Positions 4,802 through 23,846 of a stretch of 64,000 nt of DNA are shown in pieces (position 1 is the first letter of the stretch; each line of letters opens with the position of its first letter). The DNA lies in NCBI GenBank assembly GCA_014384375.1, contig JACNFY010000034.1:1674-65673 (forward strand), in the 5' to 3' direction. Both the position numbers and the translations under genes were made by a program. Origin of the DNA: Nanobdellati archaeon. GTDB lineage: Archaea; Nanobdellota; Nanobdellia; Woesearchaeales; GCA-2686295. The notes under the pieces are model-generated. The model ran no database searches, had not been told where the DNA came from, and worked only from the letters and a program-made list of their open reading frames with translations.

Positions 4802-5827
4802 TCATATGAATTCCAAATGCATCTTATTATCAAGTATTAAATCTTTAGCATAATTGTTGTATTGATGAAAAGGACAATCATATATGTTGCAAAGCTTTAG
4901 ATCAGGCATCTTAATTATTTTTTTATGTTTCTTACTGTTCCATATATCATCAAAGCTTTGTGTGTATATATTTCCAATAGACGGGGTTTTTATATGGTTG
5001 AAAAAGACGCATAAGTGAACATCTCCGTTAGAATTTATAAGTGTGTGTAGAGGATTTGTGAAGCATTGATTTCTTATATGCGTTTTCTCCAGAGAACTGT
5101 AAACTTTGAAGTCTTTATTTGATAGCTTCTTCGATTTTGCTAATAGTTTTTTTGCGATAGATAATTCTTCTTTATTTATTTCATTCTCATTATTCCTCAA
5201 ACACTTGAATTGTATGTAATCAACATTAAGTTGTTTTGCTTTTTTGCTCATTTCTAATATATTCTTATAATTGATTTTTGAAACCAGAACTTTCAGACCA
5301 ATTATTGTTTTTAAATTATAATTATTTTTTATTTTCACTAATAATTCTATGTTTTTTAGTAGCTTTTCATAATCGTTTTTTTGATGTATTTTTTCATATT
5401 CTTCATTATTAGATGCATCAAAAGCTATCCTGATGAAGAAGCAGTTCTCCAAAATGTTTTTGGCGTTTTTTTCGTTGAATAATATTGCGTTTGTGAAAAG
5501 TCCAACTTTAAGTCCTGATTTACTTGCATGTCTAATAACTTCTTCTATCTTAGGATGCATTAATGGCTCTCCCCCACCAGATATTTCTACTCCTTCAACT
5601 CCTTTGTCCTTCACTTGATTAAGCAAGGACTTGAAAATCTCCAAATTAAGAAAAGGTTTTTCTTCTTTATGCAAATCCAAAGAATGGCAACCAACGCATG
5701 TATGGTTACATCTCTCTGATATAAAGAAGTGTACAGTTCTTGGATAAGGAAATTCTCCTCTGATTATCTCTTTTATTTCCTTATAATGAGTTAATACTTT
5801 TTCTTTTACAAAAGGTGTTTCTTCCAT
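4802..5827 (-). CDS. radical SAM/SPASM-domain enzyme
   Basis: ISERCNHTCVGCHS cluster motif, GGGEP, and C-terminal Cys-rich auxiliary-cluster pattern (CFTNP...HLCVFF...CNIYDCPFH). Paralogous in layout to the rSAMs at 13731, 17504 and 18846. Confidence 0.6.
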   Translation of the reverse strand: MEETPFVKEKVLTHYKEIKEIIRGEFPYPRTVHFFISERCNHTCVGCHSLDLHKEEKPFLNLEIFKSLLNQVKDKGVEGVEISGGGEPLMHPKIEEVIRHASKSGLKVGLFTNAILFNEKNAKNILENCFFIRIAFDASNNEEYEKIHQKNDYEKLLKNIELLVKIKNNYNLKTIIGLKVLVSKINYKNILEMSKKAKQLNVDYIQFKCLRNNENEINKEELSIAKKLLAKSKKLSNKDFKVYSSLEKTHIRNQCFTNPLHTLINSNGDVHLCVFFNHIKTPSIGNIYTQSFDDIWNSKKHKKIIKMPDLKLCNIYDCPFHQYNNYAKDLILDNKMHLEFI

Positions 5828-6507
5828 TTTATGAATAAAATTATTGTCCCTATAAAAGCAATGATTGAGTGCTTTATAATTCTTACTTTTGATTCTTTGC
5901 GATGCTTAAACTTTACAGGAAATTCCTTAATCTTATAACCTTTATCTCTAATCTTCAGATATATTTCTAACAAACTCTCAAAGCCAGTTCTTTGAAGGTC
6001 AAGATTTTTTATTGCTTTTCGTTTGAAAATAGCAAATCCACTTTCAATATCTTTTATTTTTAATCCAAACAAAATCCTGTATAAAAAATAATACATTCTA
6101 CTTATAATCTTTCTATGAAAAGGATAATCTGCTTTTGTTCCGACAAACCTTGAACCTATTATTACATCCAAGTTTGTATTTGAAAAAGCTTTGTAAAACT
6201 TATTTATATGAGATGGAGAAACAGCCATATCAGCATCTAAAATGACAACATAGTCTCCCTTTGCTTCATCAAACATTCGTTTATATGCTTCGCCCACACC
6301 TCTGTTTGGAAAGTAGGTTACTACTTTTACACTTTTATCTTTCTTTTGTATACTTTTGAGTTTTTCAAGTGTTGAATCTGTACTGCCATCATCAAACAAT
6401 ATTATTTCATATGGCTGTTTTATTTTTCTAAATTCTTTTTTTATCACAACATAACTTTTTTCAATTATTCTTTCCTCATTATAGCAAGGTATGCAAACAG
6501 ATATCAT
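5806..6507 (-). CDS. GT2 family glycosyltransferase (Dpm1/DPG-synthase-like)
   Basis: CIPCYNEE ... LFDDGSTD ... ILDADM motifs of GT-A fold inverting glycosyltransferases. Confidence 0.65.
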   Translation of the reverse strand: MISVCIPCYNEERIIEKSYVVIKKEFRKIKQPYEIILFDDGSTDSTLEKLKSIQKKDKSVKVVTYFPNRGVGEAYKRMFDEAKGDYVVILDADMAVSPSHINKFYKAFSNTNLDVIIGSRFVGTKADYPFHRKIISRMYYFLYRILFGLKIKDIESGFAIFKRKAIKNLDLQRTGFESLLEIYLKIRDKGYKIKEFPVKFKHRKESKVRIIKHSIIAFIGTIILFIKWKKHLL

Positions 6508-6559: not shown

Positions 6560-7432
6560 TCATCTTATTTTTTTTGTCGTTATTGATATTTTCCAAATTG
6601 AATGGTCTTTTTTTACTTTAAAATCAATCCATCCAAGGAATCTTGCTATTGTTTCTAATATGATAGCAATTAATAGGTGTAGTATCTTGCTGATATTTCT
6701 GAATGAGTATTTAATCACTGTTTTTAACAGCAAAGTTTTGTTCATTGTTGAAGCAGAATGATTTGTTCTTTTTCTTAGCTCTAGATGCCCTGCGTATATT
6801 CTTCTTCTTTGTCTTATAAAGTCCTTTATTGTTTCTGGTCCTTTGTTGTATACTATCGCTTTTGGTTCATATATTAGTTTTAATCCTTTCTTCTTAATTA
6901 TCGAAGCTATTTCTTCTTCATCAACAGCTGTTCTTGGTATTTTGTTTATGATGTTTCTAAAAGCTATTAATTCTCCGAATTTAGGATTCTCTTTTGATAT
7001 TAGATGATGCAATTTCCATTGTAGTTGAACTATGAAATTCATTAATTTTTTGTTGCTTTTGATTGGTATAAACCTCCCAGTTCCTATTCCAACTTTTGGA
7101 CTGCTAAGTCTTGAACAGAGATTTTCTATACTATTTATTTCAGGTATAGTGTCTGCGCTTTCTAAAACAAGAATTTTGCTTTTTGCTTTTTTTAAGAAAA
7201 GATTTATTGCTTCACTTTTTCCTTTTCTTTCTTTTTCAACTATCAGTTTTATCTTTTTGTTTTTCTTAGAGAAATTGTTTACTATTTCGTTTGTTTTATC
7301 TGTGCTTCCAGAAGAAACAACGATGATTTCTTTTATATTTGCTTTCTTTGTTTTTTGGTTTAGAATTGCGTTTAGAAGATTACCAATATTACTCTCTTCA
7401 TTATAGGCCATTACCCCCACAGATATGTTCAT
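6560..7432 (-). CDS. GT2 family glycosyltransferase
   Basis: VGVMAYNEESNI ... VVSSGSTDKT ... motif order typical of GT2. Confidence 0.55.
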   Translation of the reverse strand: MNISVGVMAYNEESNIGNLLNAILNQKTKKANIKEIIVVSSGSTDKTNEIVNNFSKKNKKIKLIVEKERKGKSEAINLFLKKAKSKILVLESADTIPEINSIENLCSRLSSPKVGIGTGRFIPIKSNKKLMNFIVQLQWKLHHLISKENPKFGELIAFRNIINKIPRTAVDEEEIASIIKKKGLKLIYEPKAIVYNKGPETIKDFIRQRRRIYAGHLELRKRTNHSASTMNKTLLLKTVIKYSFRNISKILHLLIAIILETIARFLGWIDFKVKKDHSIWKISITTKKIR

Positions 7433-8936: not shown

Positions 8937-9478
8937 TTTATTAATTGATAAAACCTTTCAAGATTTTGAATGATGACGTGATTCTTTATTATCTCTTTTG
9001 TAAGTAAGTTTTCTTTATCTAGTTCGCCTATTTTTACACTCAGTTTTTCCGATATCAATCTAGTTTTTTCTCTTAATTTTTTATCTGTTGTTTCAAGGTA
9101 AATATCTATGTCGCTGTTTTTTGTTGTGGTTCCTTTTGCTTGACTTCCAAAAAGAGCTATTAGTTCTCCTTTTGTTTTATTCTGTAATTCTTTTATTATT
9201 CTTCTAAGCTTTGGTTGTTGGATTATTTTAAGGAGTTTGTAATGTTCTGTAATGAAAAGATATATTTTTGCTTCTGGTGTTTCTTTAAGAAAGTATGTTT
9301 TGTTCTTTCCTTGTTGTTTAAAATCAACAATGTTTTCTTCTTCTAATTGTTTCATAATTCTCATGACTGTTGATGGGATGAGTCCTAAGTCTTCTCCTAT
9401 TTGCCTAATATGTGAGGGTTCTTTTCTAAGGAGTTCGATAATCTCAAAATCGTTTCTTTTTCGCAACATATGTTGCAT
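8933..9478 (-). CDS. wHTH-fused minimal nucleotidyltransferase (MNT antitoxin-type)
   Basis: N-terminal winged-helix region (IRQIGEDLGLIPSTVMRIMKQLEEENIV) followed by the classic MNT motif ALFGSQAKGTTTKNSDIDIYLE. Confidence 0.6.
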   Translation of the reverse strand: MQHMLRKRNDFEIIELLRKEPSHIRQIGEDLGLIPSTVMRIMKQLEEENIVDFKQQGKNKTYFLKETPEAKIYLFITEHYKLLKIIQQPKLRRIIKELQNKTKGELIALFGSQAKGTTTKNSDIDIYLETTDKKLREKTRLISEKLSVKIGELDKENLLTKEIIKNHVIIQNLERFYQLIK

Positions 9479-9673
9479 AATTGCAACAATGCTATTTAAA
9501 TCTTTCGTTTTTTATTGTAATTGTAAAAAAGAAATATTCAAATAATTTGTATACTACGCTATGTAAATAACATAATAATTTGCTTAAAATGTATGAAACA
9601 TATGATAGTTATGGATAGAAATATATAACTTTTTTAGAAAAGCTTTAATAATTCTTTATTATTATTTTATTTT

Positions 9674-11773
9674 ATGTCTCTTTTTAACAAACCTCTTTTC
9701 AAGCTTTTCTTGACTTTTTGGATTATTTATGCTTCTTTTGCTAATCTTAGTGGTTGGAATGAAAACTCTCGTTTAGATCTAACAAGGGCCATTGTTGATG
9801 AGGGAACTTTTAAGATTGATACTTATGCTAATAATACTGGTGACCGTGCTTATTATAATGGTCATTATTATTCTGACAAGTTTCCAGGGGCTTCTTTCTT
9901 AGCTGTTCCTCCTTATTTTGTTTTTAAACATGTTTTTGGAACTCCAAGCATAAATGATAATTTTTATGAGACAAATCCTGATCCTTTATATAACGGCATG
10001 GTTTTTTTTGTGATAATCTTTACTTCTGCTTTGTTCTCAGCATTAACTGTTGTATTAGTATATAAAACAGCTGGTTTCTTTACAAACAAAAAGAGTCATA
10101 AATATATTGTAGCAATAGCTTATGGCTTAGGAACGATTGCTTTTTCTCAAGCGACATTATTCATGGGTCATGCGATAGCTACTTTCTTTTCATTTGCAGC
10201 TTTTTATTTTGTTTTTAAGATGAGGAAAGAGAAAAAAGATTATTTATTTTTTGCAGGCATTCTTGGAGGATTTGCTATTATAACAGAACCATTAACTTTC
10301 TTGATAATTCTTGGTTGTTTTATTTTAGTCTTATTAACTAAAAAATTAAAGAACGTTCTTAATTTTAGTATTGGTTGCTTTTTGATTCTTTTAATGTTGT
10401 TTGGTTATAACTATGCTGTTTTTGAAGATCCTTTAGCTTCATCATATAATTATGTTGATATTGATTTTTACAGTTTGAGTTATAAGGACTTATCAATATC
10501 AAGCTGTAGTTTTTCTTCTCCCGTTAATGAAAATATTTTTCAGAAAATGAAATATCGAATATTTAAAAATATTCCTTGTAGAAGTTCAACACTTCAATAT
10601 TACAGTCCTGAATTAAATGCTATTGTGAAAGAGACTAATGATTTTAGTGAAGAAAGTTTTTTACTATTATATGAACAAAACTCAGCAGAAGGAACTTTTA
10701 ATTATTCAATTAAGAGAAATACATATTTTAAAAATGGAATAGAACAAGTTATGTACTCAAAAATAGTTCTTATTGGGGATGTATTATTCTATAACAAGAA
10801 TGTAACACAGTACACAGTTTTTGTAAATAAACAATTACTGCCAGTTAATTCTCGAGATTGGAAGAAATCAGCCGATTTTTACTTAGATTCGAATGGTATT
10901 CTTAAATACAATTATTTATTTGGAACTTATTCTTATACTAATTGCCCTTGGTTAAATGAGTATTATTATCCTTTTAATATTAGTAAACTTGAAACTTCAA
11001 AATGTGAGGAGAAGTTCTTCTATAGTTTTAATGGGAGTTTAATGCTTAAAAAAACTATTCGTGCTAATCTTACATATATTGGAAATGAAACATTGAATAT
11101 TAATTCTGAGAATTTTAATGTATACAAATTCAAAAACGAATTTTTTCTAGAACCAGAATATGATTATACTGTCATCATTAGAAATGTTGTTAGATTACTA
11201 TTTTATCCTTATAGAGGTTTGTTATTTTATAGCCCTATATTGTTTGTTTCAATCATAGGTTTGTGTTTCATGTATAGAAAATATAAGTTTGAAGCTATAA
11301 TGATTTCTTTGCTTTTTTTCCTTCTTTTACTTTTTAACGCTCAACAAACACTTTGGTGGGGGGGAACATCTTTTGGGCCAAGACAACTTTTACCCATCAT
11401 ACCTTTTTTAATAATTCCGTTATTGTTCTCTCTTAAAAAAATTAATATAAAATTTATATTATTAATAATGATGATTTCTGTATTTGTTAATCTTGTTGGT
11501 TTGGAAGAGTTAGAACAAAAATATGTGGTTGTTAATGAGGGTATTAGTTTCGAACCAGAACTTTGGAATAAGTTGGACTCATGGCAGCCAATAGCTAATC
11601 CTTTGTTTGATCATTATGCACCGTTATTTGCAAATTATGGTCCAAGAAGTGAGTTGCTTGAAAAAATGTTTGGAGTTAAGTTTATACCTTTTCTTAATGT
11701 ATTATTCTTATTATTAATAATTATCTTTATATTTAAAATAAACATCAGAAAAAGCAGAGTGAATAAAAATTAG
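9674..11773 (+). CDS. GT-C-like multi-TM glycosyltransferase with a large extracytoplasmic C-terminal domain
   Basis: 699 aa. The N-terminal ~240 aa has many TM helices and a VDEGTF loop motif like PMT/ArnT-type transferases. It is followed by an Asn/Tyr-rich soluble domain and further C-terminal TM helices. Confidence 0.45.
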   Translation: MSLFNKPLFKLFLTFWIIYASFANLSGWNENSRLDLTRAIVDEGTFKIDTYANNTGDRAYYNGHYYSDKFPGASFLAVPPYFVFKHVFGTPSINDNFYETNPDPLYNGMVFFVIIFTSALFSALTVVLVYKTAGFFTNKKSHKYIVAIAYGLGTIAFSQATLFMGHAIATFFSFAAFYFVFKMRKEKKDYLFFAGILGGFAIITEPLTFLIILGCFILVLLTKKLKNVLNFSIGCFLILLMLFGYNYAVFEDPLASSYNYVDIDFYSLSYKDLSISSCSFSSPVNENIFQKMKYRIFKNIPCRSSTLQYYSPELNAIVKETNDFSEESFLLLYEQNSAEGTFNYSIKRNTYFKNGIEQVMYSKIVLIGDVLFYNKNVTQYTVFVNKQLLPVNSRDWKKSADFYLDSNGILKYNYLFGTYSYTNCPWLNEYYYPFNISKLETSKCEEKFFYSFNGSLMLKKTIRANLTYIGNETLNINSENFNVYKFKNEFFLEPEYDYTVIIRNVVRLLFYPYRGLLFYSPILFVSIIGLCFMYRKYKFEAIMISLLFFLLLLFNAQQTLWWGGTSFGPRQLLPIIPFLIIPLLFSLKKINIKFILLIMMISVFVNLVGLEELEQKYVVVNEGISFEPELWNKLDSWQPIANPLFDHYAPLFANYGPRSELLEKMFGVKFIPFLNVLFLLLIIIFIFKINIRKSRVNKN

Positions 11774-11801
11774 CAATCTGAAATTAAAAACAAAAAAACT
11801 T

Positions 11802-12905
11802 GTGGAAGAAGACCTATCAAGGTTAGTTTCATTTATTAGCAAGCATTTTAAGAGTTCTACAATTATTCTTGCAGGCAGTTTTTATCATAATGAAGCAACA
11901 ACGTATTCTAGTAATGGAGAGTTAAAATTTTTTAGTGATTATGACATATTCATTGCCTTTGATTACTACAATCCTTTTACATTCATGTTGAATACTTTAA
12001 AATTGAAAAAATTTAAAGTTGAGTTAAAGAAGTTACAGGAGGTTTTGAATAACAAAAAAGTTGATTTGAATTTTATTTGGAGACCATTAATAAAAATGGG
12101 CATCCAGAGAGGAGTCAATGAAGGAAAAGTTTTGTATGGAAATAGAGGTTATATAAGGAAACAAAGAGGAAAGAGATATTTCAGGAATTGCGACTTATTT
12201 TATCTATTAGAACAAAACTACACATTTCTATTGCTAAGTAATCCCTTAATAAAACAAAAAAGTATGGCTTGTTACTTTGTAATAAAAACTGTTTTACAAT
12301 CATTAGAAATACTGTACTTGAGAACATTTAACGAAACCGAAACTTACAACAAGAAATATATTTTAGATAAAATAAGAAATTCAAACTTTATAGATAAAAG
12401 AGAAGAAATAACTTGCAAAAAATGTTTAAACAGAAAGATTGAATCAAAAAAAAACACTATTTTTTATGACACAAATTTATGGTTTGAAGCAAGAGACCTT
12501 TTAGACAAAGTTTTATTTAAGATATTTAAAACAGAAGAGAAAGAAAAGCTATTAAACAAAATATCTAAAAACATAACTTTTCATTTAAAAATCAAAAATG
12601 GGTTATTACTACTGAAATTCTTACTAAAAAACAGAATCAAAGTTAATTATTTTCAAATTCTTAACATACCTTTAATAAATTTCTTCAATAAGTTTAATCT
12701 TGTTCATTGTATAGAAAAAAATTTTGAAATAAACAAAAAACAGCTAACTGAAGTTGAGAACGGTATCTTCAAAATAAACAAAGAGAAAAATAAATTTAGT
12801 GATTCTGAAAAAAGGTTTTTCTGGTCTTTTGAGAAAATAACTACATATAAAAAAGAAAATCCTTTAGAGATTAAAACCGGAGAAAGAAAACATTTTTATT
12901 TCTAA
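11802..12905 (+). CDS. nucleotidyltransferase-fold protein (NTase-1)
   Basis: IILAGSFYHNEATTYSSNGELKFFSDYDIFIAFD is a GS...[DE]h[DE]h pol-beta NTase core, followed by a long helical Lys-rich C-terminal region. Confidence 0.5.
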   Translation: MEEDLSRLVSFISKHFKSSTIILAGSFYHNEATTYSSNGELKFFSDYDIFIAFDYYNPFTFMLNTLKLKKFKVELKKLQEVLNNKKVDLNFIWRPLIKMGIQRGVNEGKVLYGNRGYIRKQRGKRYFRNCDLFYLLEQNYTFLLLSNPLIKQKSMACYFVIKTVLQSLEILYLRTFNETETYNKKYILDKIRNSNFIDKREEITCKKCLNRKIESKKNTIFYDTNLWFEARDLLDKVLFKIFKTEEKEKLLNKISKNITFHLKIKNGLLLLKFLLKNRIKVNYFQILNIPLINFFNKFNLVHCIEKNFEINKKQLTEVENGIFKINKEKNKFSDSEKRFFWSFEKITTYKKENPLEIKTGERKHFYF

Positions 12906-12924
12906 CAATTTTCTCTTTAATCAA

Positions 12925-13698
12925 ATGAACGACCTTTACCAAAATGAAGAATTATTTAATAAATTCTGGACAAACAGAGAAAGGCTTTATCCTTCCAGCA
13001 ATTTCGAAGAATGGAAAAAAGATGTTTTATTTGTAATTCTAGATGATATTATCAAAGAAAACAAAAAGAAAGAACTTAGATTCCTTGATGTTGGTTGTGG
13101 TTTAGGCAGTAATGTTTTGGATTACAGTAAAAAACTAGAGAAACCAAAAGTTTTCTTAATAGATTTATCCAAGAAAGTTATATCAATGATACACAAGGAA
13201 CTAACAACCTCTCAAAATAAATATGTTAAGTCTAAGCAGGCAAGTGCTTTAAAAATTCCTTTTCAAGACAATTATTTCGATTTTGTTTTTAGCAATCAAG
13301 TAAATCATTATTTTAAAGGCGAAGATAGAAAAAAAGCATTCTCAGAATTATATAGGGTTTGTAAACCAAAAGGTCATGTTTTTATTTGTGTTGGGAACAA
13401 GTATTACATTCCCTGGCAATTAACTCATTTTTTTAAAGACAAAGTTTTAGATACTTGGATTCATGGGCATATGAGTTTTTACTCTTATTCTGAATTAAAA
13501 AAATTTATGACTGGTTTTAAACTAAAATATTTATTTGGTATTGGAAATGCATATAGAATCCCGAAAAGTTTTTTATTATTTTTGAATAAAATTTTTTATA
13601 GAAAATATAATCCTTTTTATTTTTACAAACCAGTTGTTCCATTTCCCAAGATTCTTGCTCAATATTTTTATCTTATAGGTAGAAAGGAAAAAAATTAA
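12925..13698 (+). CDS. class I SAM-dependent methyltransferase
   Basis: Motif I LDVGCGLGSN and the post-II segment LYRVCKPKGHVFI. The gap from the upstream gene is 19 nt. Confidence 0.7.
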   Translation: MNDLYQNEELFNKFWTNRERLYPSSNFEEWKKDVLFVILDDIIKENKKKELRFLDVGCGLGSNVLDYSKKLEKPKVFLIDLSKKVISMIHKELTTSQNKYVKSKQASALKIPFQDNYFDFVFSNQVNHYFKGEDRKKAFSELYRVCKPKGHVFICVGNKYYIPWQLTHFFKDKVLDTWIHGHMSFYSYSELKKFMTGFKLKYLFGIGNAYRIPKSFLLFLNKIFYRKYNPFYFYKPVVPFPKILAQYFYLIGRKEKN

Positions 13699-13730
13699 AT
13701 TTAAAAAAGAAAAGTGCTTGAAGGTTAAAT

Positions 13731-14825
13731 ATGAATAACAATAACTCTTTTTTAATGTATGCGTTAAAAAGATCTAAAAACTATTTGTTAAATAATCTGA
13801 ATTATTATTATAGTGGTATAAATTCATCAAAGCCAAATGTTTTTATTTTTGTTTTTACCAAAAAGTGCAACTTTCGTTGCACACACTGTGACATCTGGAA
13901 AGAAAAAAACTTTGGTGATGAGATAAGTCTAGATGATTGGAAAAAAGCAGCGACCAATATCTTCAATTGGGTAGGTCCTTTTATTGCTAGCATCACCGGA
14001 GGAGAAGCTTTTCTAAGAAAAGACTTGTTTGAATTTGCAGATTTTCTGAAAGATAAGTGCATTGAATTAAAATTAAACACTAATGGTTCATTAATCAATG
14101 AAAGGATTGCAAAAAGACTTTCTAAAAGTCCTTTCAAAACCTTCATATTCTCACTTTATAGTCTAAGTAACCATACTAATGATAAGCTTAGGGGTATAAA
14201 AGGATCATATAAAAAAACACTTAGAGCAATTAATTTAATGAATAAATATTGTGAGAAATATGGTTTTAAGAAGAAGATGTGTATAGCTGTGCTAATAACA
14301 AAGTATAACTTATTAGAACTATCTAAGATAGTTATATGGGCTAAAACCATGAATGTAAAGGTAATTTTGCAACCTCTTCTAAAAAATTTTGATACAGATT
14401 TTGAATCAGATTGGATTGATAGAAGTAAACTTTGGCCTAATGATAGAGAATTAATTCACCAAATTTTTAAGGAAATAATTCATATGAAAAAAAATGGTTT
14501 TCCAATCAGCAATGATATATCACAATTAGAAATGATGAAGAACTATTATTTAAGAAATAAAGAAGAAGTGCTCAAACATAAATGCAAAGTTGGAGTTGAC
14601 AACATCACAATTTATCAAGATGGTAATATTAAGTTTTGTTCTTTAGCTAATAATATTGGGAACATAAAAAATAATTCGATAAGCAAGATATGGAAGTCTA
14701 TAACTGCAAAAGAAGAAAGACAAACTTTATTTGATTGCAAAAAAGATTGCAGAGTTCATCCCTGCTATTATGACAAACCATTAAAAGCTAAGATTAATGG
14801 GTTTATTAGTGAATATAAAAACTAG
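13731..14825 (+). CDS. radical SAM/SPASM-domain enzyme (rSAM-1)
   Basis: CNFRCTHC motif at residue ~46, ITGGEAF, and a C-terminal CKVG...FCSLAN...CKKDCRVHPC auxiliary-cluster Cys pattern. There is no N-terminal RRE-sized extension. Confidence 0.7.
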   Translation: MNNNNSFLMYALKRSKNYLLNNLNYYYSGINSSKPNVFIFVFTKKCNFRCTHCDIWKEKNFGDEISLDDWKKAATNIFNWVGPFIASITGGEAFLRKDLFEFADFLKDKCIELKLNTNGSLINERIAKRLSKSPFKTFIFSLYSLSNHTNDKLRGIKGSYKKTLRAINLMNKYCEKYGFKKKMCIAVLITKYNLLELSKIVIWAKTMNVKVILQPLLKNFDTDFESDWIDRSKLWPNDRELIHQIFKEIIHMKKNGFPISNDISQLEMMKNYYLRNKEEVLKHKCKVGVDNITIYQDGNIKFCSLANNIGNIKNNSISKIWKSITAKEERQTLFDCKKDCRVHPCYYDKPLKAKINGFISEYKN

Positions 14826-14837
14826 ATAAGATAAAAA

Positions 14838-15854
14838 TTGGTTAACTACAATTTGAAATTTTCATTAAAAGAAACTCCTAAGATAAGAAAAGATGTAATC
14901 CTAAACCTAAATAAAATTGTTGTATATTTAGAAGAAAAAATTCCTAATTCCGCAATTGGATTGTGGGGAAGCTTCTCATATGGTGAGGGAAGAGTAAAAA
15001 AGGTAAATGGAACTCTAAAATATCAAGATGATATGGACATATTTATATATACAAATTCACTTGTTAAATACTTAAAATGGCATAATAAAATTAAAAATCT
15101 AGGCGAAAAATTAAATATTAATGCGGAAGTATGTGTCTGGGTTAAATGTATTCCATTAATTAGGTTAGGATTATCTTTCTGCGGCTTTCCAAAAATGTTG
15201 AATAAAAAAAAACTTGATATGTTCAAAGAAAAAAGATTTCCTCAAATTATAGAATCAACAAAATATTTATTAGAAAGCCATCAGTATATGTTCAGATTTA
15301 TAACAACAAAAAATAGAGAGAATCTAATTAAAGCTTATATTAGATTGTATAGATCATTAGAAATTTATGATAGAAAAAACAAAGAAGTATTTTCATTAAA
15401 AAACAATCTAAAAAGCTTAGAGAAATACAGAAAAGAGCTAACTAAACAACAGAACGATATTCTAAAATCTGCAATAAAAATCAGACTTGGTATGAAAAGT
15501 AAAACTAAAATTGATTTTTCATCAATATTTAAAATGAAGTCATTGTTTGAGAAAATGTTTTATAAGTTAAATAATAAAAATGGGCTCTTTATTGTTAGAT
15601 ATCAACTAATAATTTGGAAGTATTTGTTTTTTAATAAAAAGCCAATAAAGATACTTATTAATTTTAATAAACAAAGATTAGCTGCGAGTAATTATTTATT
15701 AAACTCAATAACTGAGAAAAAGCGAATAAATGATGAGTACCTGAAAAAAGCAGAATATATAGTAACAAATATTTTATCTGAAAAGCCAAGAACTAATTCA
15801 AAAGAAAAAAGATTCAAGTGGGTTGCTGATAAGTTATGGGAAATCTACAAATGA
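14838..15854 (+). CDS. nucleotidyltransferase-fold protein (NTase-2), paralog of 16471..17502
   Basis: GLWGSFSYGEGRVKKVNGTLKYQDDMDIFIY NTase core. It aligns along its whole length (~45% identity by eye) with the ORF at 16471. Confidence 0.55.
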   Translation: MVNYNLKFSLKETPKIRKDVILNLNKIVVYLEEKIPNSAIGLWGSFSYGEGRVKKVNGTLKYQDDMDIFIYTNSLVKYLKWHNKIKNLGEKLNINAEVCVWVKCIPLIRLGLSFCGFPKMLNKKKLDMFKEKRFPQIIESTKYLLESHQYMFRFITTKNRENLIKAYIRLYRSLEIYDRKNKEVFSLKNNLKSLEKYRKELTKQQNDILKSAIKIRLGMKSKTKIDFSSIFKMKSLFEKMFYKLNNKNGLFIVRYQLIIWKYLFFNKKPIKILINFNKQRLAASNYLLNSITEKKRINDEYLKKAEYIVTNILSEKPRTNSKEKRFKWVADKLWEIYK

Positions 15855-16458
15855 TTTAAAAATATTTAAATATAGACTTCAAATAGTTATTTTGATGATA
15901 TCTCCAATTATTAACAATCTAATTTATTTGCTTCTCATTATTTTGTGTTTATGTATAATAATAGTAACAGTAATTATTTTTCTTAGCCGAAAAGCAATTG
16001 GAATTTCAAAGACTGATAAGAGATTCATGAAGATAGCTTACAAAGAAGCTGAGATGGCTCTAAAAGCTAAAAACGGCCCTGTTGGCGCTGTTTTGACTAT
16101 TAATGATAAAATAATTGCTAAAGCTCATAATCAAGTTGAAACAAGTAAAAATTACTTTGCTCATGCAGAAATACTAACTATAAATAAAGCTCTTAGAAAA
16201 CTAAACATAAAAAATTTTGGCGAAATAAAAAACAAAGCTATATTATATACTACTTATGATCCTTGTACATTTTGTGAAGGATTTATTATCTGGGCAAAAG
16301 TTTCAAGAATTATTGTGGGGAAAAATGAACCATTAGTGAACTCTATAAAAAAAGACATGTCTCATTTAACTTATAAAATAAGAAAAAAAGGCGGGTTATA
16401 CATAGACATACAAACAAAATTATTCAAAAAATTCCTAATCGTCAATATTAAAAAATAA
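15823..16458 (+). CDS. membrane-anchored CDA-fold deaminase (TadA/CDA-like)
   Basis: HAEILTI ... YDPCTFCEGFII are the H[AC]E and PCxxC zinc-binding motifs of the cytidine/tRNA-adenosine deaminase fold. There is an N-terminal hydrophobic helix. The ORF overlaps the upstream gene, and the in-frame Met at 15895 is a more likely start. Confidence 0.6.
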   Translation: MLISYGKSTNDLKIFKYRLQIVILMISPIINNLIYLLLIILCLCIIIVTVIIFLSRKAIGISKTDKRFMKIAYKEAEMALKAKNGPVGAVLTINDKIIAKAHNQVETSKNYFAHAEILTINKALRKLNIKNFGEIKNKAILYTTYDPCTFCEGFIIWAKVSRIIVGKNEPLVNSIKKDMSHLTYKIRKKGGLYIDIQTKLFKKFLIVNIKK

Positions 16459-16470
16459 ATACTAATTTGT

Positions 16471-17502
16471 GTGATAAGATTGAGAAATTATAATTTTAAC
16501 TTTGCTTTAAATGAAACTAAAGAAATAAGAGAAAAAATTTGTTCTGATATTGATAAGATTGTTAGTTATTTAGAAGGTCTTATTTCTGGTTGTGCTGTTG
16601 GATTGTGGGGTAGTTTTTCTTTTGGTGAAGGACGTGTAAAAGAAGTTAACAATAAACTAGAGTATGTAGATGATCTGGATTTTGTTGTCTATACTAATTC
16701 AATTGTAAAGTTTTTCAAATGGAATAATAATAAAACGCTAAAGAATCTGAATGAAAAATTAAATATCAATGCAGAAATCTGTGTTTGGGTTAAATGTATT
16801 CCATTAATAAAGCTTAGATTGTTTTTTTGTGGGTTTCCAAGAATACTAAATAAAAAAGGGGTTAATATTTTCAAAGAAAAGAATATTCCAACAATACATG
16901 TTTATTCAACTTATTTACTAAAAAGCTATTATCGTCTCTTTAAATATGTATTAACAAACGAAAAACATTTTCTGAGGAAAGCATATATTGAAGTTTTCAG
17001 GTCTTTAGTGTTCAGTAAAAAAAGGGACAAAGATACTTTTTCATTGAAGCATAATTTAAATCAGTTAAACGAGTATAAGAAAATTCTAACTAAAGAGCAG
17101 TATAGAATAATTGAGTGTTCTATAGAAAGCCGATTGAGTTTAAAAACAAAAAGTGAAATAGGTTATGATTCTATATCTAAAATGAAACCCTTATATGACA
17201 AACTTTTTAATAAATATTATAGAACAACTAGCACATTCTCTATGAAGTATTACTTTAAACTTATTAAATTTCTTTTACAAGAAAAAAAGATTCCCAACAT
17301 TTTCATTAATTTTAGCAAAAAGAGATTTTTAATTCATCATTATTTATTGCAAGCTTTAGAAAAAAATAAAAAGATAAATGAGTCCTATTTGAAAAAAGCA
17401 GAAGATACAATTAAAAAAATGTGTTATGAAACAAACCAATACAAATCTTTAGAAGAAAGATTTTCATGGTGTATAAAAAATTTAGAGTATATCTGGAGAT
17501 AA
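16471..17502 (+). CDS. nucleotidyltransferase-fold protein (NTase-3)
   Basis: GLWGSFSFGEGRVKEVNNKLEYVDDLDFVVY. Clear paralog of the ORF at 14838. Confidence 0.55.
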   Translation: MIRLRNYNFNFALNETKEIREKICSDIDKIVSYLEGLISGCAVGLWGSFSFGEGRVKEVNNKLEYVDDLDFVVYTNSIVKFFKWNNNKTLKNLNEKLNINAEICVWVKCIPLIKLRLFFCGFPRILNKKGVNIFKEKNIPTIHVYSTYLLKSYYRLFKYVLTNEKHFLRKAYIEVFRSLVFSKKRDKDTFSLKHNLNQLNEYKKILTKEQYRIIECSIESRLSLKTKSEIGYDSISKMKPLYDKLFNKYYRTTSTFSMKYYFKLIKFLLQEKKIPNIFINFSKKRFLIHHYLLQALEKNKKINESYLKKAEDTIKKMCYETNQYKSLEERFSWCIKNLEYIWR

Positions 17503-17503
17503 A

Positions 17504-18541
17504 ATGCTGCGAAAACAAGTGAAAGAAGGTACAAATTTTATAAGAAGGAGATTATCTCATCTAACACGTTTAAATATTGTAAAACCCAGTTATTTTACAT
17601 TTGAACTCACTAATAAATGTAATTTTTTTTGTAAATATTGTGATCAATGGAAAATTAAACCTGATAAAGAACTTTCATTACTTGAATGGAAGTGTGTTTC
17701 TAAAAAAATATTTGACTGGATGGGGCCTTATAATGTTAAGCTAAGTGGAGGAGAACCTTTTTTGAAGAAAAATATTTTTGATCTTATAAGATACAACAAT
17801 AATTTAGGGATTAAAACCATGATTAATTCGAATGGTTATTTAATAGATGATAAGTTGGCAGAAAAAATTGTTAAATCAAATGTTCATTTTATTAAAATTT
17901 CTTTGATTAGCTTTAACAAAGATGTGAACGAGGATTTAAGGGGAAGAAAAGATGTATTTGAAAAAAGCATGAATGCTGTTAAGAAATTAGTTTATTGGAA
18001 GCAGAAACTTAACTCAAATATAAACATATCTCTTGCGTTTTTAATGAATTCTCAGAATTTAGAAGAAGTTGAAGAAATGATTTTATGGGCGAAGAAAATA
18101 GGCGTTAGGATTTATTTACAAGTTTTAGTGCATAATTTCAAATCAGACGTACGAGAGAATTTGGAAAAAAGCGAGCTTTGGCCTAAAAATAAGAAACAAA
18201 TAAAAGAAGTTTTCAGAAAAATTATTTTGCTTAAAAAAAATAATTATCCTATAGTTCAATCTATGCCTATATTAAAATTAATGAGAGAATATTTTTTAAG
18301 AAATGAGAAGATAATATTAAGAACACCTTGCAAAATTTCCTATTACAGCTTTATTGTTGATCCTGAAGGAAATGTGAGATTTTGTTTTGGAAGGCATAAA
18401 AATGGGTTAGTTGGTAACATAAAAGAAGATTCGCCTAAAGATATATGGTTCAGTAAACAATCTAATATTGAAAGAGAAAATATTCGTAATTGCAGGGAAT
18501 TTTGCAGGGTTCATAAACCTGGAAGAGGTTTTTTAATCTGA
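17504..18541 (+). CDS. radical SAM/SPASM-domain enzyme (rSAM-2)
   Basis: TNKCNFFCKYC, LSGGEPFLKK, and C-terminal CKISYY...FCFGRH...CREFCRVH. Paralog of the ORFs at 13731 and 18846. It lies 1 nt after NTase-3. Confidence 0.7.
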   Translation: MLRKQVKEGTNFIRRRLSHLTRLNIVKPSYFTFELTNKCNFFCKYCDQWKIKPDKELSLLEWKCVSKKIFDWMGPYNVKLSGGEPFLKKNIFDLIRYNNNLGIKTMINSNGYLIDDKLAEKIVKSNVHFIKISLISFNKDVNEDLRGRKDVFEKSMNAVKKLVYWKQKLNSNINISLAFLMNSQNLEEVEEMILWAKKIGVRIYLQVLVHNFKSDVRENLEKSELWPKNKKQIKEVFRKIILLKKNNYPIVQSMPILKLMREYFLRNEKIILRTPCKISYYSFIVDPEGNVRFCFGRHKNGLVGNIKEDSPKDIWFSKQSNIERENIRNCREFCRVHKPGRGFLI

Positions 18542-18545
18542 AAAT

Positions 18546-18849
18546 ATGAAAATGGAAAAGTTAAAACCTTTTAGCTTTACTCTGAATGAGACTCCAACAA
18601 TAAGAAGAAAAATTTGTTCTGACCTTGATAAAATAGCAGATTATATAGAGAAAACAGTTCCGAATTCTGTAGTCGGTTTATGGAGTGCCTTTTCATACGG
18701 AAAGGGAAGGGTAAAAGAGATAGATGGAAAATATCTTAAAAAAGCAGAAAAAATCTTAGAGGATTACTTTTGTGAAGAAAGAATGGGCATCTCTAAAAAA
18801 AGAGAGATTTGCACGAGTTGCTGATAAATTAGTGGAACTTTACAAATGA
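18546..18849 (+). pseudogene. decayed NTase paralog (NTase-4 remnant): internal deletion plus 3' frameshift
   Basis: The 92-aa ORF keeps the N-terminal ~60 aa of the NTase family, but the GS motif is degraded to SAFSYGKG and the acidic triad is missing. It then jumps to the family C-terminus (YLKKAE...). The last family segment ERFARVADKLVELYK* is readable only in the -1 frame and ends at a TGA overlapping the ATG of rSAM-3 at 18846. Confidence 0.5.
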
Positions 18850-19913
18850 AACAAAAAACAAAAAGAATTGCAGATTACATAAAGAATCAAATAACATATT
18901 ACACTACAACAAGTATGAACCAGCCACATCTTATAGAGCTAATACTCACATTTAGATGTAATCAAAAATGTCCGCATTGTGATTCCCAAAAAATAAAAGG
19001 AACAAAAGAGTTAACAATAAATCAATGGAAAGATATAGTGAAGAAGATAAATAGATGGCTTGGACCAAAGCCAATATGCTTAGCTGGCGGAGAACCTCTT
19101 TTAAAGAAAGGTGTTTACGATTTGGTAAGTTCTATATCAAAAAATAATAAGGTATATATTATGACAAATGGCCAACATGATGAGAAAACAGCAAAGAGAT
19201 TGGTTGAGTCAAATATTTCGCAAATACTAATATCCTTTTATAGTTTAAATCCGAGAATTCATGATTCTATTAGAGGAACAAAGGAAGCTCATAAAAGAGC
19301 AAAGAATTTTATAGAGGAATTGCTTAAAGAGAAGAAAAAACAAAAAAAAGATATCAGGATAGACCTATCATTTCTGTTAACCTCTAAAAATTTCAGAGAG
19401 GCTCCTGCTTTTATAAAACATTTTTCAAAAAAGGAAATATACACTTCTTTAACCCCTTTGAGAAGGAACCCGTTAGATATTTTTAGTGAAGATTTCAAGT
19501 TTTATAATAAATACTGGTATAAAAAAAGTTCTTTATGGATAAATGATAAAGAAGAATTTGTTAAAATTATAAAAAAAATAATTTGTATGAAAAAGAAAGG
19601 TTATTTAATAAATAACTACATTAATACTTTAAAAAAGTTTGTTGATTACTTTGAAAATCCTTCACAATTAAATAAATTCAATTGCTATATGCCATTATTA
19701 AATTTTGTTATTGGACCAATGGGTGATGTTCGTCTTTGTTATTATTCTAGGAATATTGGAAATGTTATAAAAAAGGATCCTAAAGGTATATGGTATTCGG
19801 AAGAACGAATGAACGAGATAAAAAGATTGAAAAAATGCACGAATTATTGCAGAATACATAACAACTATAATTTCATAAACTTAGATGAGAAGATAAGATT
19901 TCTTTTTGAGTAA
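18846..19913 (+). CDS. radical SAM/SPASM-domain enzyme (rSAM-3)
   Basis: TFRCNQKCPHC, LAGGEPLLKK, and C-terminal CYMP...LCYYSRN...CTNYCRIH. Confidence 0.7.
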   Translation: MKQKTKRIADYIKNQITYYTTTSMNQPHLIELILTFRCNQKCPHCDSQKIKGTKELTINQWKDIVKKINRWLGPKPICLAGGEPLLKKGVYDLVSSISKNNKVYIMTNGQHDEKTAKRLVESNISQILISFYSLNPRIHDSIRGTKEAHKRAKNFIEELLKEKKKQKKDIRIDLSFLLTSKNFREAPAFIKHFSKKEIYTSLTPLRRNPLDIFSEDFKFYNKYWYKKSSLWINDKEEFVKIIKKIICMKKKGYLINNYINTLKKFVDYFENPSQLNKFNCYMPLLNFVIGPMGDVRLCYYSRNIGNVIKKDPKGIWYSEERMNEIKRLKKCTNYCRIHNNYNFINLDEKIRFLFE

Positions 19914-23772: not shown

Positions 23773-23846
23773 AAAAAAGATATAAAGTAATTTAATTTAA
23801 AAATGTTTTAGATACTTTTATTAAAATTTAAATTTTAACTTGAGTT

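Follow-up and report, generated by a model that had tools for sequence, protein, structure and literature searches.

What is the joint function, if any, of nucleotidyltransferase (NTase)-like and radical-SAM genes that alternate in one run in an uncultured DPANN archaeon? In the window, i. e. the whole analysed stretch of 64,000 nucleotides, nine co-directional genes occupy positions 11802-19913 of the plus strand: three paralogs of an NTase-fold family (NT1-3) and the remnant of a fourth copy (NT4), three radical-SAM enzymes (RS1-3), a methyltransferase and a deaminase (Table 1). All nine open reading frames reported by a first-pass annotation were recovered, as were the motifs it quoted (CNFRCTHC, CNFFCKYC, CNQKCPHC, GS...DYDIF and GSFSYGEG...DDMDIF). 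Since a PMT_2-type GT-C gene lies on the same strand 28 nt 5' of NT1, the run really comprises ten genes, and this glycosyltransferase gene probably heads the operon. The genes are about as closely packed as had been described: the gaps in the nine-gene run are 19, 32, 12, 12, 1, 4 and 21 nt, and NT2 and the deaminase overlap by 32 nt, given a TTG start for the latter. However, the ATGA overlaps that had also been reported were not found in the plus-strand run; the only one of 4 nt joins two minus-strand genes (3407-3410). The GC content is 26.4% at 11802-19913 and 27.7% at 1-19913 versus 36.5% at 23152-64000, and the run has two GT-C and two GT2 genes at its flanks. The earlier description as a low-GC accessory island amid glycosyltransferases (26-28% versus 36.5% GC) thus held.

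Table 1. Features of the run and of the divergent minus-strand operon (positions in the window).
Position	Strand	Feature	Family evidence
281..1729	-	Second PMT_2-type GT-C, 482 aa, end of minus-strand operon	PMT_2 E = 5e-15
2361..3410	-	PF14907 'uncharacterised nucleotidyltransferase', 349 aa	PF14907 E = 1.4e-37
3407..4795	-	B12-binding radical-SAM enzyme, 462 aa	B12-binding E = 2e-16, Radical_SAM E = 5.5e-22
4802..5827	-	RS4, radical SAM/SPASM, 341 aa	Radical_SAM E = 1e-16, SPASM E = 8.5e-12
5806..6507	-	GT2 like polyprenyl-phosphate sugar synthases (AglJ, ArnC, PgfS, PpgS-like)	Glycos_transf_2 E = 1e-34
6560..7432	-	GT2 glycosyltransferase, first gene of divergent glycan operon	Glycos_transf_2 E = 2e-23
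9674..11773	+	GT-C glycosyltransferase, PMT_2/ArnT-like, 699 aa	Pfam PMT_2 E = 2e-6, PMT E = 1e-5
11802..12905	+	NT1, divergent NTase-fold paralog, 367 aa	Family HMM E = 4.5e-91
12925..13698	+	Class I SAM-dependent methyltransferase, 257 aa	Methyltransf_11 E = 1e-21
13731..14825	+	RS1, radical-SAM with C-terminal SPASM/twitch-like domain, 364 aa	Radical_SAM E = 7.5e-19, SPASM 26.2 bits
14838..15854	+	NT2, NTase-fold paralog, 338 aa	Family HMM E = 1e-103
15823..16458	+	CDA/TadA-fold zinc deaminase, N-terminal membrane anchor, 211 aa	dCMP_cyt_deam_1 E = 5e-23
16471..17502	+	NT3, NTase-fold paralog, 343 aa (modelled protein)	
17504..18541	+	RS2, radical-SAM with twitch-like domain, 345 aa (modelled protein)	
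18546..18824	+	NT4 remnant, 92 aa	Family HMM E = 4e-18
18846..19913	+	RS3, radical-SAM with twitch-like domain, 355 aa	Radical_SAM E = 1.4e-18, SPASM 25.6 bits

At the level of sequence, the paralogy within the NT set and within the RS set is far above chance. NT2 and NT3 are 46% identical (E = 5e-102), and NT1 shares 24-33% identity with both (E = 1e-7 to 2e-6), carries GS...DYD and has a weak Polbeta match (E = 3e-3). BLASTP aligned the N-terminal 51-54 aa of NT4 to NT2/NT3 with 53-57% identity and gave a weak C-terminal match of 22 aa to NT2 (45%, E 0.15), which marks NT4 as an internal-deletion remnant; its DxD residues are lost and GS is changed to SA. BLASTP and the family HMM thus agree with the earlier count of three full-length copies and a decayed one. 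Invariant in the family are G47, D68 and D70; outside the NTase motif an alignment of 30 sequences contained no invariant residue, and one of five sequences no invariant Arg or His. The motif region aligns with an MNT protein of the same window (hhalign, E = 5e-4). The N-terminal domain is MNT-like and the C-terminal fold HEPN-like, the closest fold being that of aminoglycoside and lincosamide resistance NTases. The model of NT3, built from five sequences, is of moderate quality (pLDDT 74.5); Foldseek found no significant match for it in the PDB, nor was there a PDB sequence match. The best reading is that NT1-3 belong to a rare, unnamed ANT/KNTase-like family of about 80 members, made of an N-terminal MNT-type pol-beta NTase domain and a HEPN-like helical substrate domain behind it. 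They are not members of PF14907, CD-NTase or AbiEii, to which they had been likened in size; they show no detectable sequence similarity to the PF14907 protein at 2361-3410 (hhalign probability 0.1%).

RS1-3 are mutually 30-33% identical (E = 1e-37 to 1e-70), which bears out their proposed paralogy. All three match Radical_SAM (E = 1e-18 to 4e-22) and SPASM (25.6-29.2 bits, cut-off 21.5) in Pfam, but every NCBIfam equivalog stays far below its cut-off; thus they are not housekeeping enzymes, in line with the first-pass annotation. Downstream of CX3CX2C there are five cysteines in RS1 and four each in RS2 and RS3, which is not the full seven-cysteine SPASM pattern. Hence the C-terminal auxiliary-cluster cysteines that had been pointed out exist, but they suffice for one cluster only; judged by this pattern the enzymes look twitch-like and not of the full SPASM type that had been assigned. 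Their closest fold is BlsE, and DesII is among the near fold neighbours. The substrates of BlsE and DesII are nucleoside- and nucleotide-linked sugars. RS1-3 are best read as members of a radical-SAM subfamily that is uncharacterised and has a single auxiliary cluster.

The domains of the NT proteins could also suggest an antiviral or toxin-antitoxin-type system, in which fusions of MNT and HEPN domains, alone or together with viperin-like radical-SAM enzymes, make modified nucleotides or cut RNA upon infection. RS1-3 do match PADLOC pVip models at sub-family level (E = 1e-16 to 2e-23), a genuine HEPN/MNT pair with a WYL protein is close by, and the region is a low-GC island. However, the pVip matches span the common radical-SAM core only, and the scores of RS1-3 with the NCBIfam viperin model, 48-66 bits, fall far short of its cut-off, 180. 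PADLOC models match no NT protein apart from a marginal Cas10 match to NT3 (E 0.0027). As the two family alignments show, the NT proteins do not conserve the Rx4-6H RNase motif of HEPN; relatives on viral contigs were not found, and glycan genes are the neighbours in every examined locus. Defence, which the first-pass annotation had offered as one role, is therefore very unlikely.

The minus-strand operon, too, has NTase and radical-SAM genes. RS4 is about 26-28% identical to RS1-3 across ~185-210 aa of the core (BLASTP). The B12-binding radical-SAM enzyme shares 32% identity with such enzymes encoded directly 5' of NT-family genes in two other loci (L014 and L016), and 26% with the corresponding domain of a fusion protein, P0125. 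The PF14907 gene fills the slot held by the NT family in L016. As its product is unlike NT1-3, the recurrence of the same NTase and radical-SAM pairing at 2361-5827 stands at the superfamily and positional level but not as kinship in sequence. The GT2 at 5806..6507 has sub-threshold NCBIfam matches to PgfS, AglJ, ArnC and dolichyl-phosphate hexose transferase. A true HEPN/MNT pair and a WYL protein are encoded at 7596-9478.

In the syntenic locus L001, NT1, NT2, NT3 and RS3 have intact orthologs (48-62% identity; NT1 48%, NT2 58%, RS3 58%) with catalytic motifs retained. Orthologs of the GT2 at 6560..7432 (77%) and of the GT-C at 9674..11773 (58%, at the same position) are present as well; the GT-C of the window matches an NCBIfam subfamily of putative glycosyltransferases, LA_3751/3752 (E = 1.5e-22). 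L001 has three consecutive NT genes and one radical-SAM gene, the RS3 ortholog directly 3' of an NT gene. Between these NT genes it lacks the methyltransferase, RS1 and RS2, and it also differs from the window in flanking genes. An iterated one-to-one NTase-radical-SAM pair is thus not the conserved unit that had been envisaged. These differences and the internal deletion in NT4 would suit the view that there is no joint function and that unrelated or decaying paralogs piled up in a recombination-prone, AT-rich island. Yet the intact orthologs, and fusions and repeated adjacency in distant lineages with GC contents from 22% to 44%, make this extremely improbable.

Ten independent loci of the NT family were compared: the window, L001, L002, L009, L010/11, L012, L013, L014/15, L016 and L017. 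All ten are polysaccharide or glycan clusters. Glycosyltransferases occur in each of them, and seven of the nine outside loci (not L001 and L017) contain polysaccharide export or assembly genes or sugar-nucleotide epimerases (Wzx, Wzy, Wzz, Wzm/Wzt, Bac_transf). An NT gene directly adjoins a radical-SAM gene in half of them (window, L001, L002, L014/15, L016), and the two are fused in P0125 (a B12-radical-SAM enzyme with two NT domains) and in P0143 (a radical-SAM enzyme with an NT domain). The functional link between NTase and radical-SAM enzymes is borne out by these fusions and adjacencies. Against a coupling counts that no radical-SAM gene is found within 10 kb of NT in three loci (L010/11, L012, L013); there is none in the stretch read of L017 either, which carries a uridine-kinase-family gene. 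The order in L016 (radical-SAM/SPASM, B12-radical-SAM, NT, phosphodiesterase, GT2) mirrors the series RS4, B12-radical-SAM, PF14907 in the window. A PF01663 NPP-type phosphodiesterase, whose closest solved relative is Xanthomonas NPP, is adjacent to or near NT in eight of the ten loci.

In L003 and L005, relatives of RS1-3 stand amid glycosyltransferase genes (GT1, GT2 and GT4). In L008, on the other hand, at least eleven radical-SAM paralogs form an array alongside TPR proteins, and no glycosyltransferase is seen there, which would suit protein substrates and counts against a role in glycan synthesis. The NT proteins could then AMPylate or otherwise nucleotidylate a protein, to which the radical-SAM enzymes would add cross-links or other changes (e. 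g. on an S-layer protein) by RRE-free recognition. Protein AMPylation or nucleotidylation is the activity of DrrA, GlnE and MNT, and some radical-SAM relatives are fused to (P0017) or adjoin TPR proteins. However, CX3CX2C begins at residues 39-46 in RS1-3, so that an RRE cannot fit; ORFs of precursor size are absent, and gaps of at most 32 nt leave no room for a precursor-peptide gene. Both absences had been noticed before, and a RiPP reading of the run is not supported. Genes for a protease, a transporter or a leader peptide are absent too, and the cysteine pattern suggests a single auxiliary cluster. As NT domains are moreover fused to GT2 domains (P0153, P0196) and the family is consistently found inside polysaccharide clusters, protein or peptide modification is quite unlikely.

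The predicted class I methyltransferase and membrane-anchored deaminase of the run were confirmed by their Pfam domains and the hydrophobic N-terminus of the deaminase. The methyltransferase reaches no NCBIfam equivalog. The deaminase has HAE and PCTFC motifs, scores 60 bits with the TadA model (cut-off 150) and has TadA, cytosine deaminase and guanosine deaminase as closest solved structures. It adjoins a set of three NT paralogs, and so do its membrane-anchored orthologs in L001 and L002. In these two orthologs the second zinc cysteine is Asp (PCxxD), hence the conserved function may be other than deamination. One could imagine that the glycosyltransferases, BlsE-like radical-SAM enzymes, methyltransferase and cytosine-type deaminase assemble a sugar-nucleoside as in blasticidin-type pathways, with the ANT-like NTases serving biosynthesis or self-resistance. 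The product would be a small nucleoside- or nucleotide-derived antibiotic or signal and not a decorated glycan. The relatives of the deaminase and the resemblance of the NT fold to resistance NTases agree with this, but the exporter, aminotransferase or ligase usual in nucleoside antibiotic clusters is missing, the GT-C and the polyprenyl-phosphate sugar synthase-like GT2 of the window use lipid-linked or surface acceptors, and the relatives lie within polymer-assembly clusters. We regard such a metabolite as unlikely.

The neighbourhoods agree best with one of the three roles proposed at first, namely that a surface glycan is the target of nucleotidylation and radical chemistry. It is fairly probable that 9674-19913 and 281-7432 form a low-GC accessory island that builds and tailors a surface glycan in this DPANN archaeon by coupling the two chemistries. 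The mechanism proposed here draws on gene neighbourhoods and on an analogy. In fosfomycin biosynthesis, Fom1, Fom3 and FomD accomplish nucleotidylation, a radical-SAM step and nucleotide removal in this order (PMC8158854), and the NT/radical-SAM module would be analogous. An NT enzyme, which may be a heterodimer of two paralogs, would put an NMP on a sugar or on a phospho- or phosphono-substituent of a glycan precursor. The nucleotide would serve the radical-SAM partner as activating group or handle; this partner could carry out a C-H-based change, e. g. methylation, oxidation, epimerisation or decarboxylation, and the SAM methyltransferase may supply a further mark. The nucleotide part might then be processed, in most relatives by the NPP-type phosphodiesterase. 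This enzyme is absent from the window and L001, which counts against a transient handle; in the sub-lineage of the window the membrane-anchored nucleobase deaminase is a candidate for this step. GT2 and GT-C enzymes would pass on the modified unit. Whatever the individual steps, the relatives tie the pairing of NT and radical-SAM enzymes to polysaccharide synthesis and not to virus defence or peptide modification.

Nine co-directional ORFs occupy positions 11802-19913 on the plus strand, separated by gaps of 19, 32, 12, 12, 1, 4 and 21 nt; NT2 and the deaminase overlap by 32 nt if the TTG start of the deaminase is used. The GC content is 26.4% in this run and 27.7% over 1-19913, compared to 36.5% downstream. 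By the source names of the identical proteins, the window belongs to a MAG of a DPANN-group archaeon. Two families are represented by several copies, the NTase-fold proteins NT1, NT2 and NT3 and the radical SAM (rSAM) enzymes RS1, RS2 and RS3. In BLASTP comparisons NT2 and NT3 were 46% identical (E = 5e-102), NT1 shared 24-33% identity with these two (E about 1e-7), and RS1-3 were 30-33% identical to each other (E = 1e-37 to 1e-70). Judged from these alignments, the paralogy within both families is real. In the 92-aa ORF NT4 the N-terminal ~55 residues of the NT2/NT3 type are joined to a C-terminal stretch of 22 aa with weak similarity (E 0.15); it is an internal-deletion remnant from which the catalytic aspartates are gone.

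Features of the window discussed in the text, with positions, strand and profile matches
Feature	Position	Strand	Remarks
PMT_2 gene	281-1729	-	last gene of the minus-strand operon
185-aa unknown ORF		-	minus-strand operon
PF14907 NTase	2361-3410	-	minus-strand operon
B12-rSAM	3407-4795	-	minus-strand operon
RS4, rSAM/SPASM	4802-5827	-	minus-strand operon
Polyprenyl-phosphate sugar synthase-like GT2	5806-6507	-	minus-strand operon
GT2	6560-7432	-	first gene of the minus-strand operon
WYL-domain gene	7596-8099	+	
85-aa Cys-rich ORF	8083-8340	+	
HEPN	8463-8936	-	paired with HTH-MNT
HTH-MNT	8933-9478	-	paired with HEPN
PMT_2-type GT-C glycosyltransferase	9674-11773	+	699 aa; tenth gene, ends 28 nt upstream of the nine-gene run
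NT1	start 11802	+	~340-367 aa (NT1-3); no Pfam match above threshold
Methyltransferase	12925-13698	+	Methyltransf_11 (Pfam)
RS1	13731-14825	+	Radical_SAM and SPASM (Pfam)
NT2	start 14838	+	no Pfam match above threshold
Deaminase	15823-16458	+	dCMP_cyt_deam_1 (Pfam)
NT3	start 16471	+	no Pfam match above threshold
RS2	17504-18541	+	Radical_SAM and SPASM (Pfam)
NT4 remnant	18546-18824	+	
RS3	18846-19913	+	Radical_SAM and SPASM (Pfam)
Helicase gene with intein	20023-23151	+	Hel308/Ski2 type
rSAM gene	37534-38274	-	
rSAM gene	40477-41664	-	

NT1-3 carry the motif of pol-beta NTases, hG[GS] followed by [DE]h[DE]h on the next strand. In an alignment of 30 family members only L45, G47, D68 and D70 are invariant, E53 is conserved in at least 90%, and S48 is invariant in five close members. 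The spacer from S48 to D68 comprises 19 residues and is thus longer than the 9-13 residues between GS and DxD in classical pol-beta NTases; roughly 9-12 residues of it form a hairpin in NT1-3. In Pfam, NT1 gave a weak Polbeta match (E = 3e-3), and sub-threshold matches to NTP_transf_2 or Polbeta appeared in 13 of the 30 member scans. With hhalign the motif region aligned to the window's own MNT (E = 5e-4). The structural neighbors of the NT3 model were the HEPN domain AF0298 (score 9.7, over the C-terminal helices), ANT(3'')(9) (9.2, 194 residues aligned), AAD(9) (8.7), DrrA (8.3), ANT(4') (7.8) and LinB (7.4), besides several minimal NTases. The relation to MNT and ANT enzymes considered in the first-pass annotation is backed by the MNT alignment and the ANT neighbors, but not by Foldseek, which returned nothing significant for the NT3 model against the PDB. 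The evidence supports, but does not prove, that the NT proteins are KNTase/ANT-like and unite an NTase domain of the MNT type with a HEPN-like helical domain. ANT(3'')(9)/AadA, AAD(9), ANT(4') and LinB likewise combine an N-terminal pol-beta/MNT-type domain (G[GS], DxD) with a C-terminal HEPN-like helical domain, and their substrates, hydroxyls of amino-sugar compounds, would suit the glycan context of the NT genes. Unlike the ANT/KNTase enzymes, NT1-3 are about 80-100 aa longer, contain the GS-DxD hairpin and have no detectable sequence similarity to them in Pfam or among PDB sequences, where the NT profiles found no meaningful match. Nor do the NT genes resemble a resistance gene of this type: glycan clusters contain several NT paralogs, and there are fusions to GT2 or B12-rSAM domains.

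The NT family is rare. A word-indexed search of 5.8 billion proteins retrieved only four sequences, counting the query and its paralog; when 1.84 billion representatives were searched exhaustively with a profile, 82 matches had E <= 1e-3, and 28 of them had E <= 1e-10. The family recurs in polysaccharide clusters of archaea-like and bacteria-like contigs. A scan of genome, metagenome and viral contig collections with the NT alignment yielded no confirmed relatives, and we found no Pfam model, NCBIfam model or solved structure for the family. The families to which these proteins had initially been likened in size were ruled out: for CD-NTase and AbiEii there was no PADLOC NTase-family match, and scans of 30 members gave no Pfam match even with E allowed up to 1; PF14907 gave no Pfam match for NT1-3, with an hhalign probability of 0.1% to the PF14907 protein of the window. 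Membership in LicD/fukutin was rejected as well (no LicD match in the scans of 30 members).

The MNT-HEPN-like architecture would be in line with a role of the island in defence, as first suggested, or as a toxin-antitoxin system. However, the HEPN RNase motif Rx4-6H is not conserved, because the five-sequence alignment has no invariant Arg or His and invariance in the 30-sequence alignment is limited to the NTase motif. NT1-3 further differ from MNT-HEPN modules in having extra helices, both domains in one chain, a glycan context and fusions to GT2 or rSAM. PADLOC matches were limited to the rSAM core, and the scan of viral contigs gave no confirmed relatives. We therefore regard this role as very unlikely.

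RS1-3 belong to the rSAM superfamily. They possess the CX3CX2C motif (conserved C39, C43 and C46), match Pfam Radical_SAM with E = 1e-18 to 4e-22, and the AF2 model of RS2 (pLDDT 91.8) shows a TIM-barrel-type rSAM fold. The full SPASM domain, with two auxiliary clusters, has seven cysteines (CX9-15GX4C ... CX2CX5CX3C ... C). In RS1-3 a CX12GX4C is kept, and the CX2CX5CX3C of SPASM/twitch maturases is cut to CX3C in RS2 and RS3 and to CX3CX4C in RS1. The family-invariant auxiliary cysteines are C276, C294, C330 and C334, with one extra in RS1 and many relatives. Since four or five cysteines suffice for one auxiliary cluster, RS1-3 are, by this count, probably twitch-like and not full SPASM enzymes. 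Of their earlier designation as SPASM-type the domain-level homology holds (Pfam SPASM 25.6-29.2 bits, threshold 21.5), whereas the seven-cysteine pattern is incomplete.

Profile searches placed RS1-3 outside the housekeeping subfamilies, as had been presumed: the best scores for AhbD/NirJ, MoaA, PqqE and tungsten-cofactor maturase were 63-91 bits, far under the NCBIfam equivalog cut-offs of 231-650. Viperin/pVip was rejected too (48-66 bits, NCBIfam cut-off 180; PADLOC pVip matches confined to the core, residues ~30-240). The CX3CX2C motif begins at residues 39-46, with just 30-45 residues ahead of it, and thus RS1-3 contain no RRE. The gaps in the run, 32 nt at most, leave no space for a precursor ORF, no precursor-peptide candidate was present among the small ORFs at 7400-9700, and the NCBIfam models of RiPP maturases scored far under their cut-offs. 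This confirms that the layout is not that of a classical leader-peptide RiPP. A modification of proteins or peptides could still be suspected from the similarities to DrrA/GlnE and to SkfB/anSME and from TPR-linked relatives, yet we consider it improbable: RS1-3 lack the RRE/peptide-binding N-terminal domain and the precursor peptide of anSME, SkfB, PqqE and BtrN, and NT relatives are fused to GT2.

The structural neighbors of the rSAM model were BlsE, a cytosylglucuronate decarboxylase (score 26.2), SkfB (24.2), SuiB (23.9), anSME (23.4), MoaA (22.1), PqqE (22.0) and DesII (21.8). BlsE and DesII are rSAM enzymes that act on nucleoside- or nucleotide-linked sugars. This shallow ranking would agree with a substrate of the sugar-nucleoside or sugar-nucleotide kind without proving it; the identity to BlsE and DesII is only 14-15%, and the phmmer match to BlsE (E = 2e-4) covers the core only. 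Unlike these two, RS1-3 keep four or five C-terminal auxiliary-cluster cysteines, and the DesII NCBIfam model was absent from the significant matches. The BlsE-like fold, the cytosine-type deaminase and the ANT-like NTases could together point to a nucleoside natural product. Against this stand the Wzx, Wzy, Wzz and ABC neighbors and the GT-C partners, which make such a product a rather unlikely outcome.

Relatives of RS1-3 were also found among glycosyltransferase genes in the loci L003 and L005. An extreme case of iterated rSAM genes is L008 (1-12042), a bacterial-type contig with 47% GC and at least eleven tandem paralogs of the RS1-3 type. A GDSL/TPR protein breaks the array, and after the array comes a TPR-rSAM fusion, with no glycosyltransferase in view; a 47-aa ORF upstream of the array does not look like a precursor peptide. 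Two more rSAM genes lie where the GC of the window is higher. One of them is TYW1-type (Wyosine_form E = 3e-25), and both seem to be housekeeping genes that have no relation to the island.

The deaminase is a CDA-fold zinc deaminase with HAE and PCTFC (81 bits, threshold 25) and a strongly hydrophobic N-terminus. It is not TadA (60 bits, NCBIfam cut-off 150), for which a membrane anchor would be atypical. Its orthologs in the outside loci L001 (5054-5608, minus strand) and L002 (11964-12521, plus strand) have PC(T/A)MD and not the zinc-binding PCxxC. These two share a juxtamembrane 'LISHSQIG', which in L001 lies upstream of the called start. A deaminase occurs in three of the ten independent contexts in which NT genes were found, exactly those with three NT paralogs.

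Glycosyltransferases were present in 9/9 outside NT loci and, with the two GT-C and two GT2 genes of the window, in all ten contexts. Wzx, Wzy, Wzz, Wzm/Wzt, Bac_transf or sugar-nucleotide epimerases occurred in seven of the nine. A PF01663 gene, closest to bacterial NPP phosphodiesterase/nucleotide pyrophosphatase, is near NT in eight of ten contexts; an rSAM gene directly adjoins NT in five and is somewhere in the locus in six. L002, with 22% GC and from a distant organism, holds an entire cluster of the Wzx/Wzy type (GT4, rSAM/SPASM, NT, Wzx, Bac_transf, Wzy_C, methyltransferase, two PF01663 phosphodiesterases, two NT genes, TM-deaminase). L009 combines Wzm/Wzt, two methyltransferases, rSAM, NT and a phosphodiesterase-GT2-GT2 fusion; L010/11 and L012 have epimerases, NT, GT2, phosphodiesterase and GT4; L013 has Wzz, Wzx, glycosyltransferases, NT and phosphodiesterase; L017 has a glycosyltransferase, NT, a sugar-modifying set, phosphodiesterase, a uridine-kinase-family gene, GT2 and GT4. 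In L016 the order is Wzx, rSAM/SPASM, B12-rSAM, NT, phosphodiesterase, GT2, Wzy_C. In L014/15 Wzx, B12-rSAM, NT and phosphodiesterase are followed by GT2 genes interleaved with two further B12-rSAMs. There (L014 8563-18883, and L015) three B12-rSAM genes alternate with GT2 pairs after the B12-rSAM/NT/phosphodiesterase triad, which suggests that radical methylation or a comparable step is repeated while the glycan is assembled.

Several relatives are fusion proteins. P0125 (1070 aa) consists of a B12-binding rSAM (1-450) and two tandem NT domains (455-753 and 757-1069), in P0143 the C-terminus of an rSAM is joined to the N-terminus of NT, and in P0153 and P0196 GT2 is fused to an NT domain. The NT family thus comprises NTase-motif enzymes that are tied to rSAM by fusion and adjacency and to polymer glycan assembly by their neighborhoods. 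The other recurrent partners, i. e. the NPP phosphodiesterase, the nucleobase deaminase and the uridine-kinase-family protein, act on nucleotides.

L001, a JGI contig of 10.7 kb, shows synteny with the window. Its order is GT2 (77% identity), PMT_2 (58%), the deaminase on the opposite strand (47%), and orthologs of NT1 (48%), NT3 (62%), NT2 (58%) and RS3 (58%); the methyltransferase, RS1 and RS2 are absent between the NT genes. Because three NT genes in a row are accompanied by one rSAM, the conserved unit is not a 1:1 pair, and the iterated NTase-rSAM pair of the first-pass annotation has to be given up as that unit. The L001 flanks (1791-2363 and 10276-10671) match window positions 23844-24818 and 55350-55772, 4 kb and 35 kb from the island; thus the genomic neighborhood differs between the two genomes. 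One could take the remnant copy and the rearranged gene order as signs that the genes have no joint function. As the orthologs in L001 are intact and fusions exist in distant lineages, this is extremely unlikely.

The minus-strand operon contains an NTase of another family, a clear member of PF14907 (E = 1e-37, 130 bits, gathering score 31.2). L016 mirrors the order of this operon, with rSAM/SPASM (341 aa), B12-rSAM (472 aa) and an NTase-fold protein, the last slot being taken by the new NT family; the B12-rSAM of the window is 32% identical to its counterparts in L016 and L014/15. The PF14907 protein resembles the NT family in this slot, in its length of about 350 aa and in its DxD motif. Thus the two NTase families appear to be positionally interchangeable beside rSAM genes in glycan clusters. 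The pairing recurs at 2361-5827 only in this positional sense, as the NTase proteins are not detectably homologous. Among the papers listed, the single one that names PF14907 mentions it just beside a PEP mutase.

Between the two glycan operons lie the WYL-domain gene, the Cys-rich ORF and the HEPN/HTH-MNT pair. As L001 has other small genes at this place, the stretch 7596-9478 looks like an inserted toxin-antitoxin-type module. At the very edge of the island is an archaeal Hel308/Ski2-type helicase gene that begins in Helicase_C and lacks the N-terminal DEAD/RecA1 half. It contains a LAGLIDADG intein (Intein_splicing residues 149-634) with 27% GC, whereas the exteins have 34-38%. The missing half was searched for in the window and not found, and none of the ORFs in the 64 kb has both Walker A and DExH; hence the gene is split or 5'-truncated. 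Neither the Rfam scan nor the tRNA scan gave a match in the window.

Taken together, the island probably encodes a module for glycan tailoring in which NTase and rSAM chemistry are coupled. A possible mechanism is that NT nucleotidylates a sugar or phospho-substituent, that the rSAM then works on the nucleotide-tagged intermediate, and that the nucleotide is afterwards removed or altered. This specific sequence of steps is tentative, and we give it roughly half the weight of the module as such. A precedent is fosfomycin biosynthesis, in which Fom1 makes cytidylyl-2-hydroxyethylphosphonate; this is methylated by Fom3, a B12-rSAM, before FomD removes CMP by hydrolysis (PMC8158854). The same logic of NTase, rSAM and phosphodiester hydrolase is recognizable in the B12-rSAM/NT/PF01663 triads of L014/15 and L016 and in the B12-rSAM-NT-NT fusion P0125. 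In contrast to fosfomycin, the NT context is polysaccharide assembly and not a phosphonate antibiotic, with no PEP mutase; the plus-strand run has twitch/SPASM-type rSAMs instead of B12-rSAMs and a deaminase in place of the phosphodiesterase. The cytidylyltransferase of Fom1 is not known to be KNTase-like, nor FomD to be of the NPP family. Weak points of the mechanism are that the window and L001 have no phosphodiesterase and that the L001 and L002 deaminases are PCxxD. Enzymes of the KNTase type form dimers that share their active sites; such dimerization could be a reason for the three co-travelling paralogs and the two NT domains of P0125.

Alternatively, NT could leave a permanent nucleotide on the surface glycan. 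The archaeon, and bacteria with related clusters, would then show nucleobase-bearing surface sugars edited by the membrane-anchored deaminase and the rSAMs. Editing of the nucleotide or of the underlying sugar might take place outside the cytoplasmic membrane, and several NT/rSAM paralog sets would yield surface variants. We judge this rather unlikely and prefer the nucleotide as a handle for radical tailoring.

A glycan biosynthesis cluster as such is of a known kind, and the island is no defence system and by itself opens no long-standing question. Its core is an unnamed NTase-fold family and uncharacterized rSAMs with nucleotide-processing partners. We found no account of an NT/rSAM glycan module in the searchable literature, and nothing relevant on rSAM/SPASM or B12-rSAM enzymes in polysaccharide clusters in the literature searched. 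The recurrence of the NT module, fused to B12-rSAM or GT2 and usually accompanied by an NPP-type phosphodiesterase, points to an undescribed glycan-tailoring step. DPANN archaea spend their life fixed to host cells, and to our knowledge their surface glycans are essentially unknown; a big part of the coding capacity of this island is devoted to enzymes without characterized relatives. If the nucleotide is permanent, it would constitute a new class of decoration on glycans, for which the island has dedicated enzymes to write and edit it. So far we know of the combination of nucleotidylation and radical chemistry only from pathways to small molecules, fosfomycin for example. If the nucleotide indeed serves as a handle, this logic would reach cell-surface polymers, and PF14907 as well as many orphan rSAM/SPASM genes in glycan loci would gain candidate functions.
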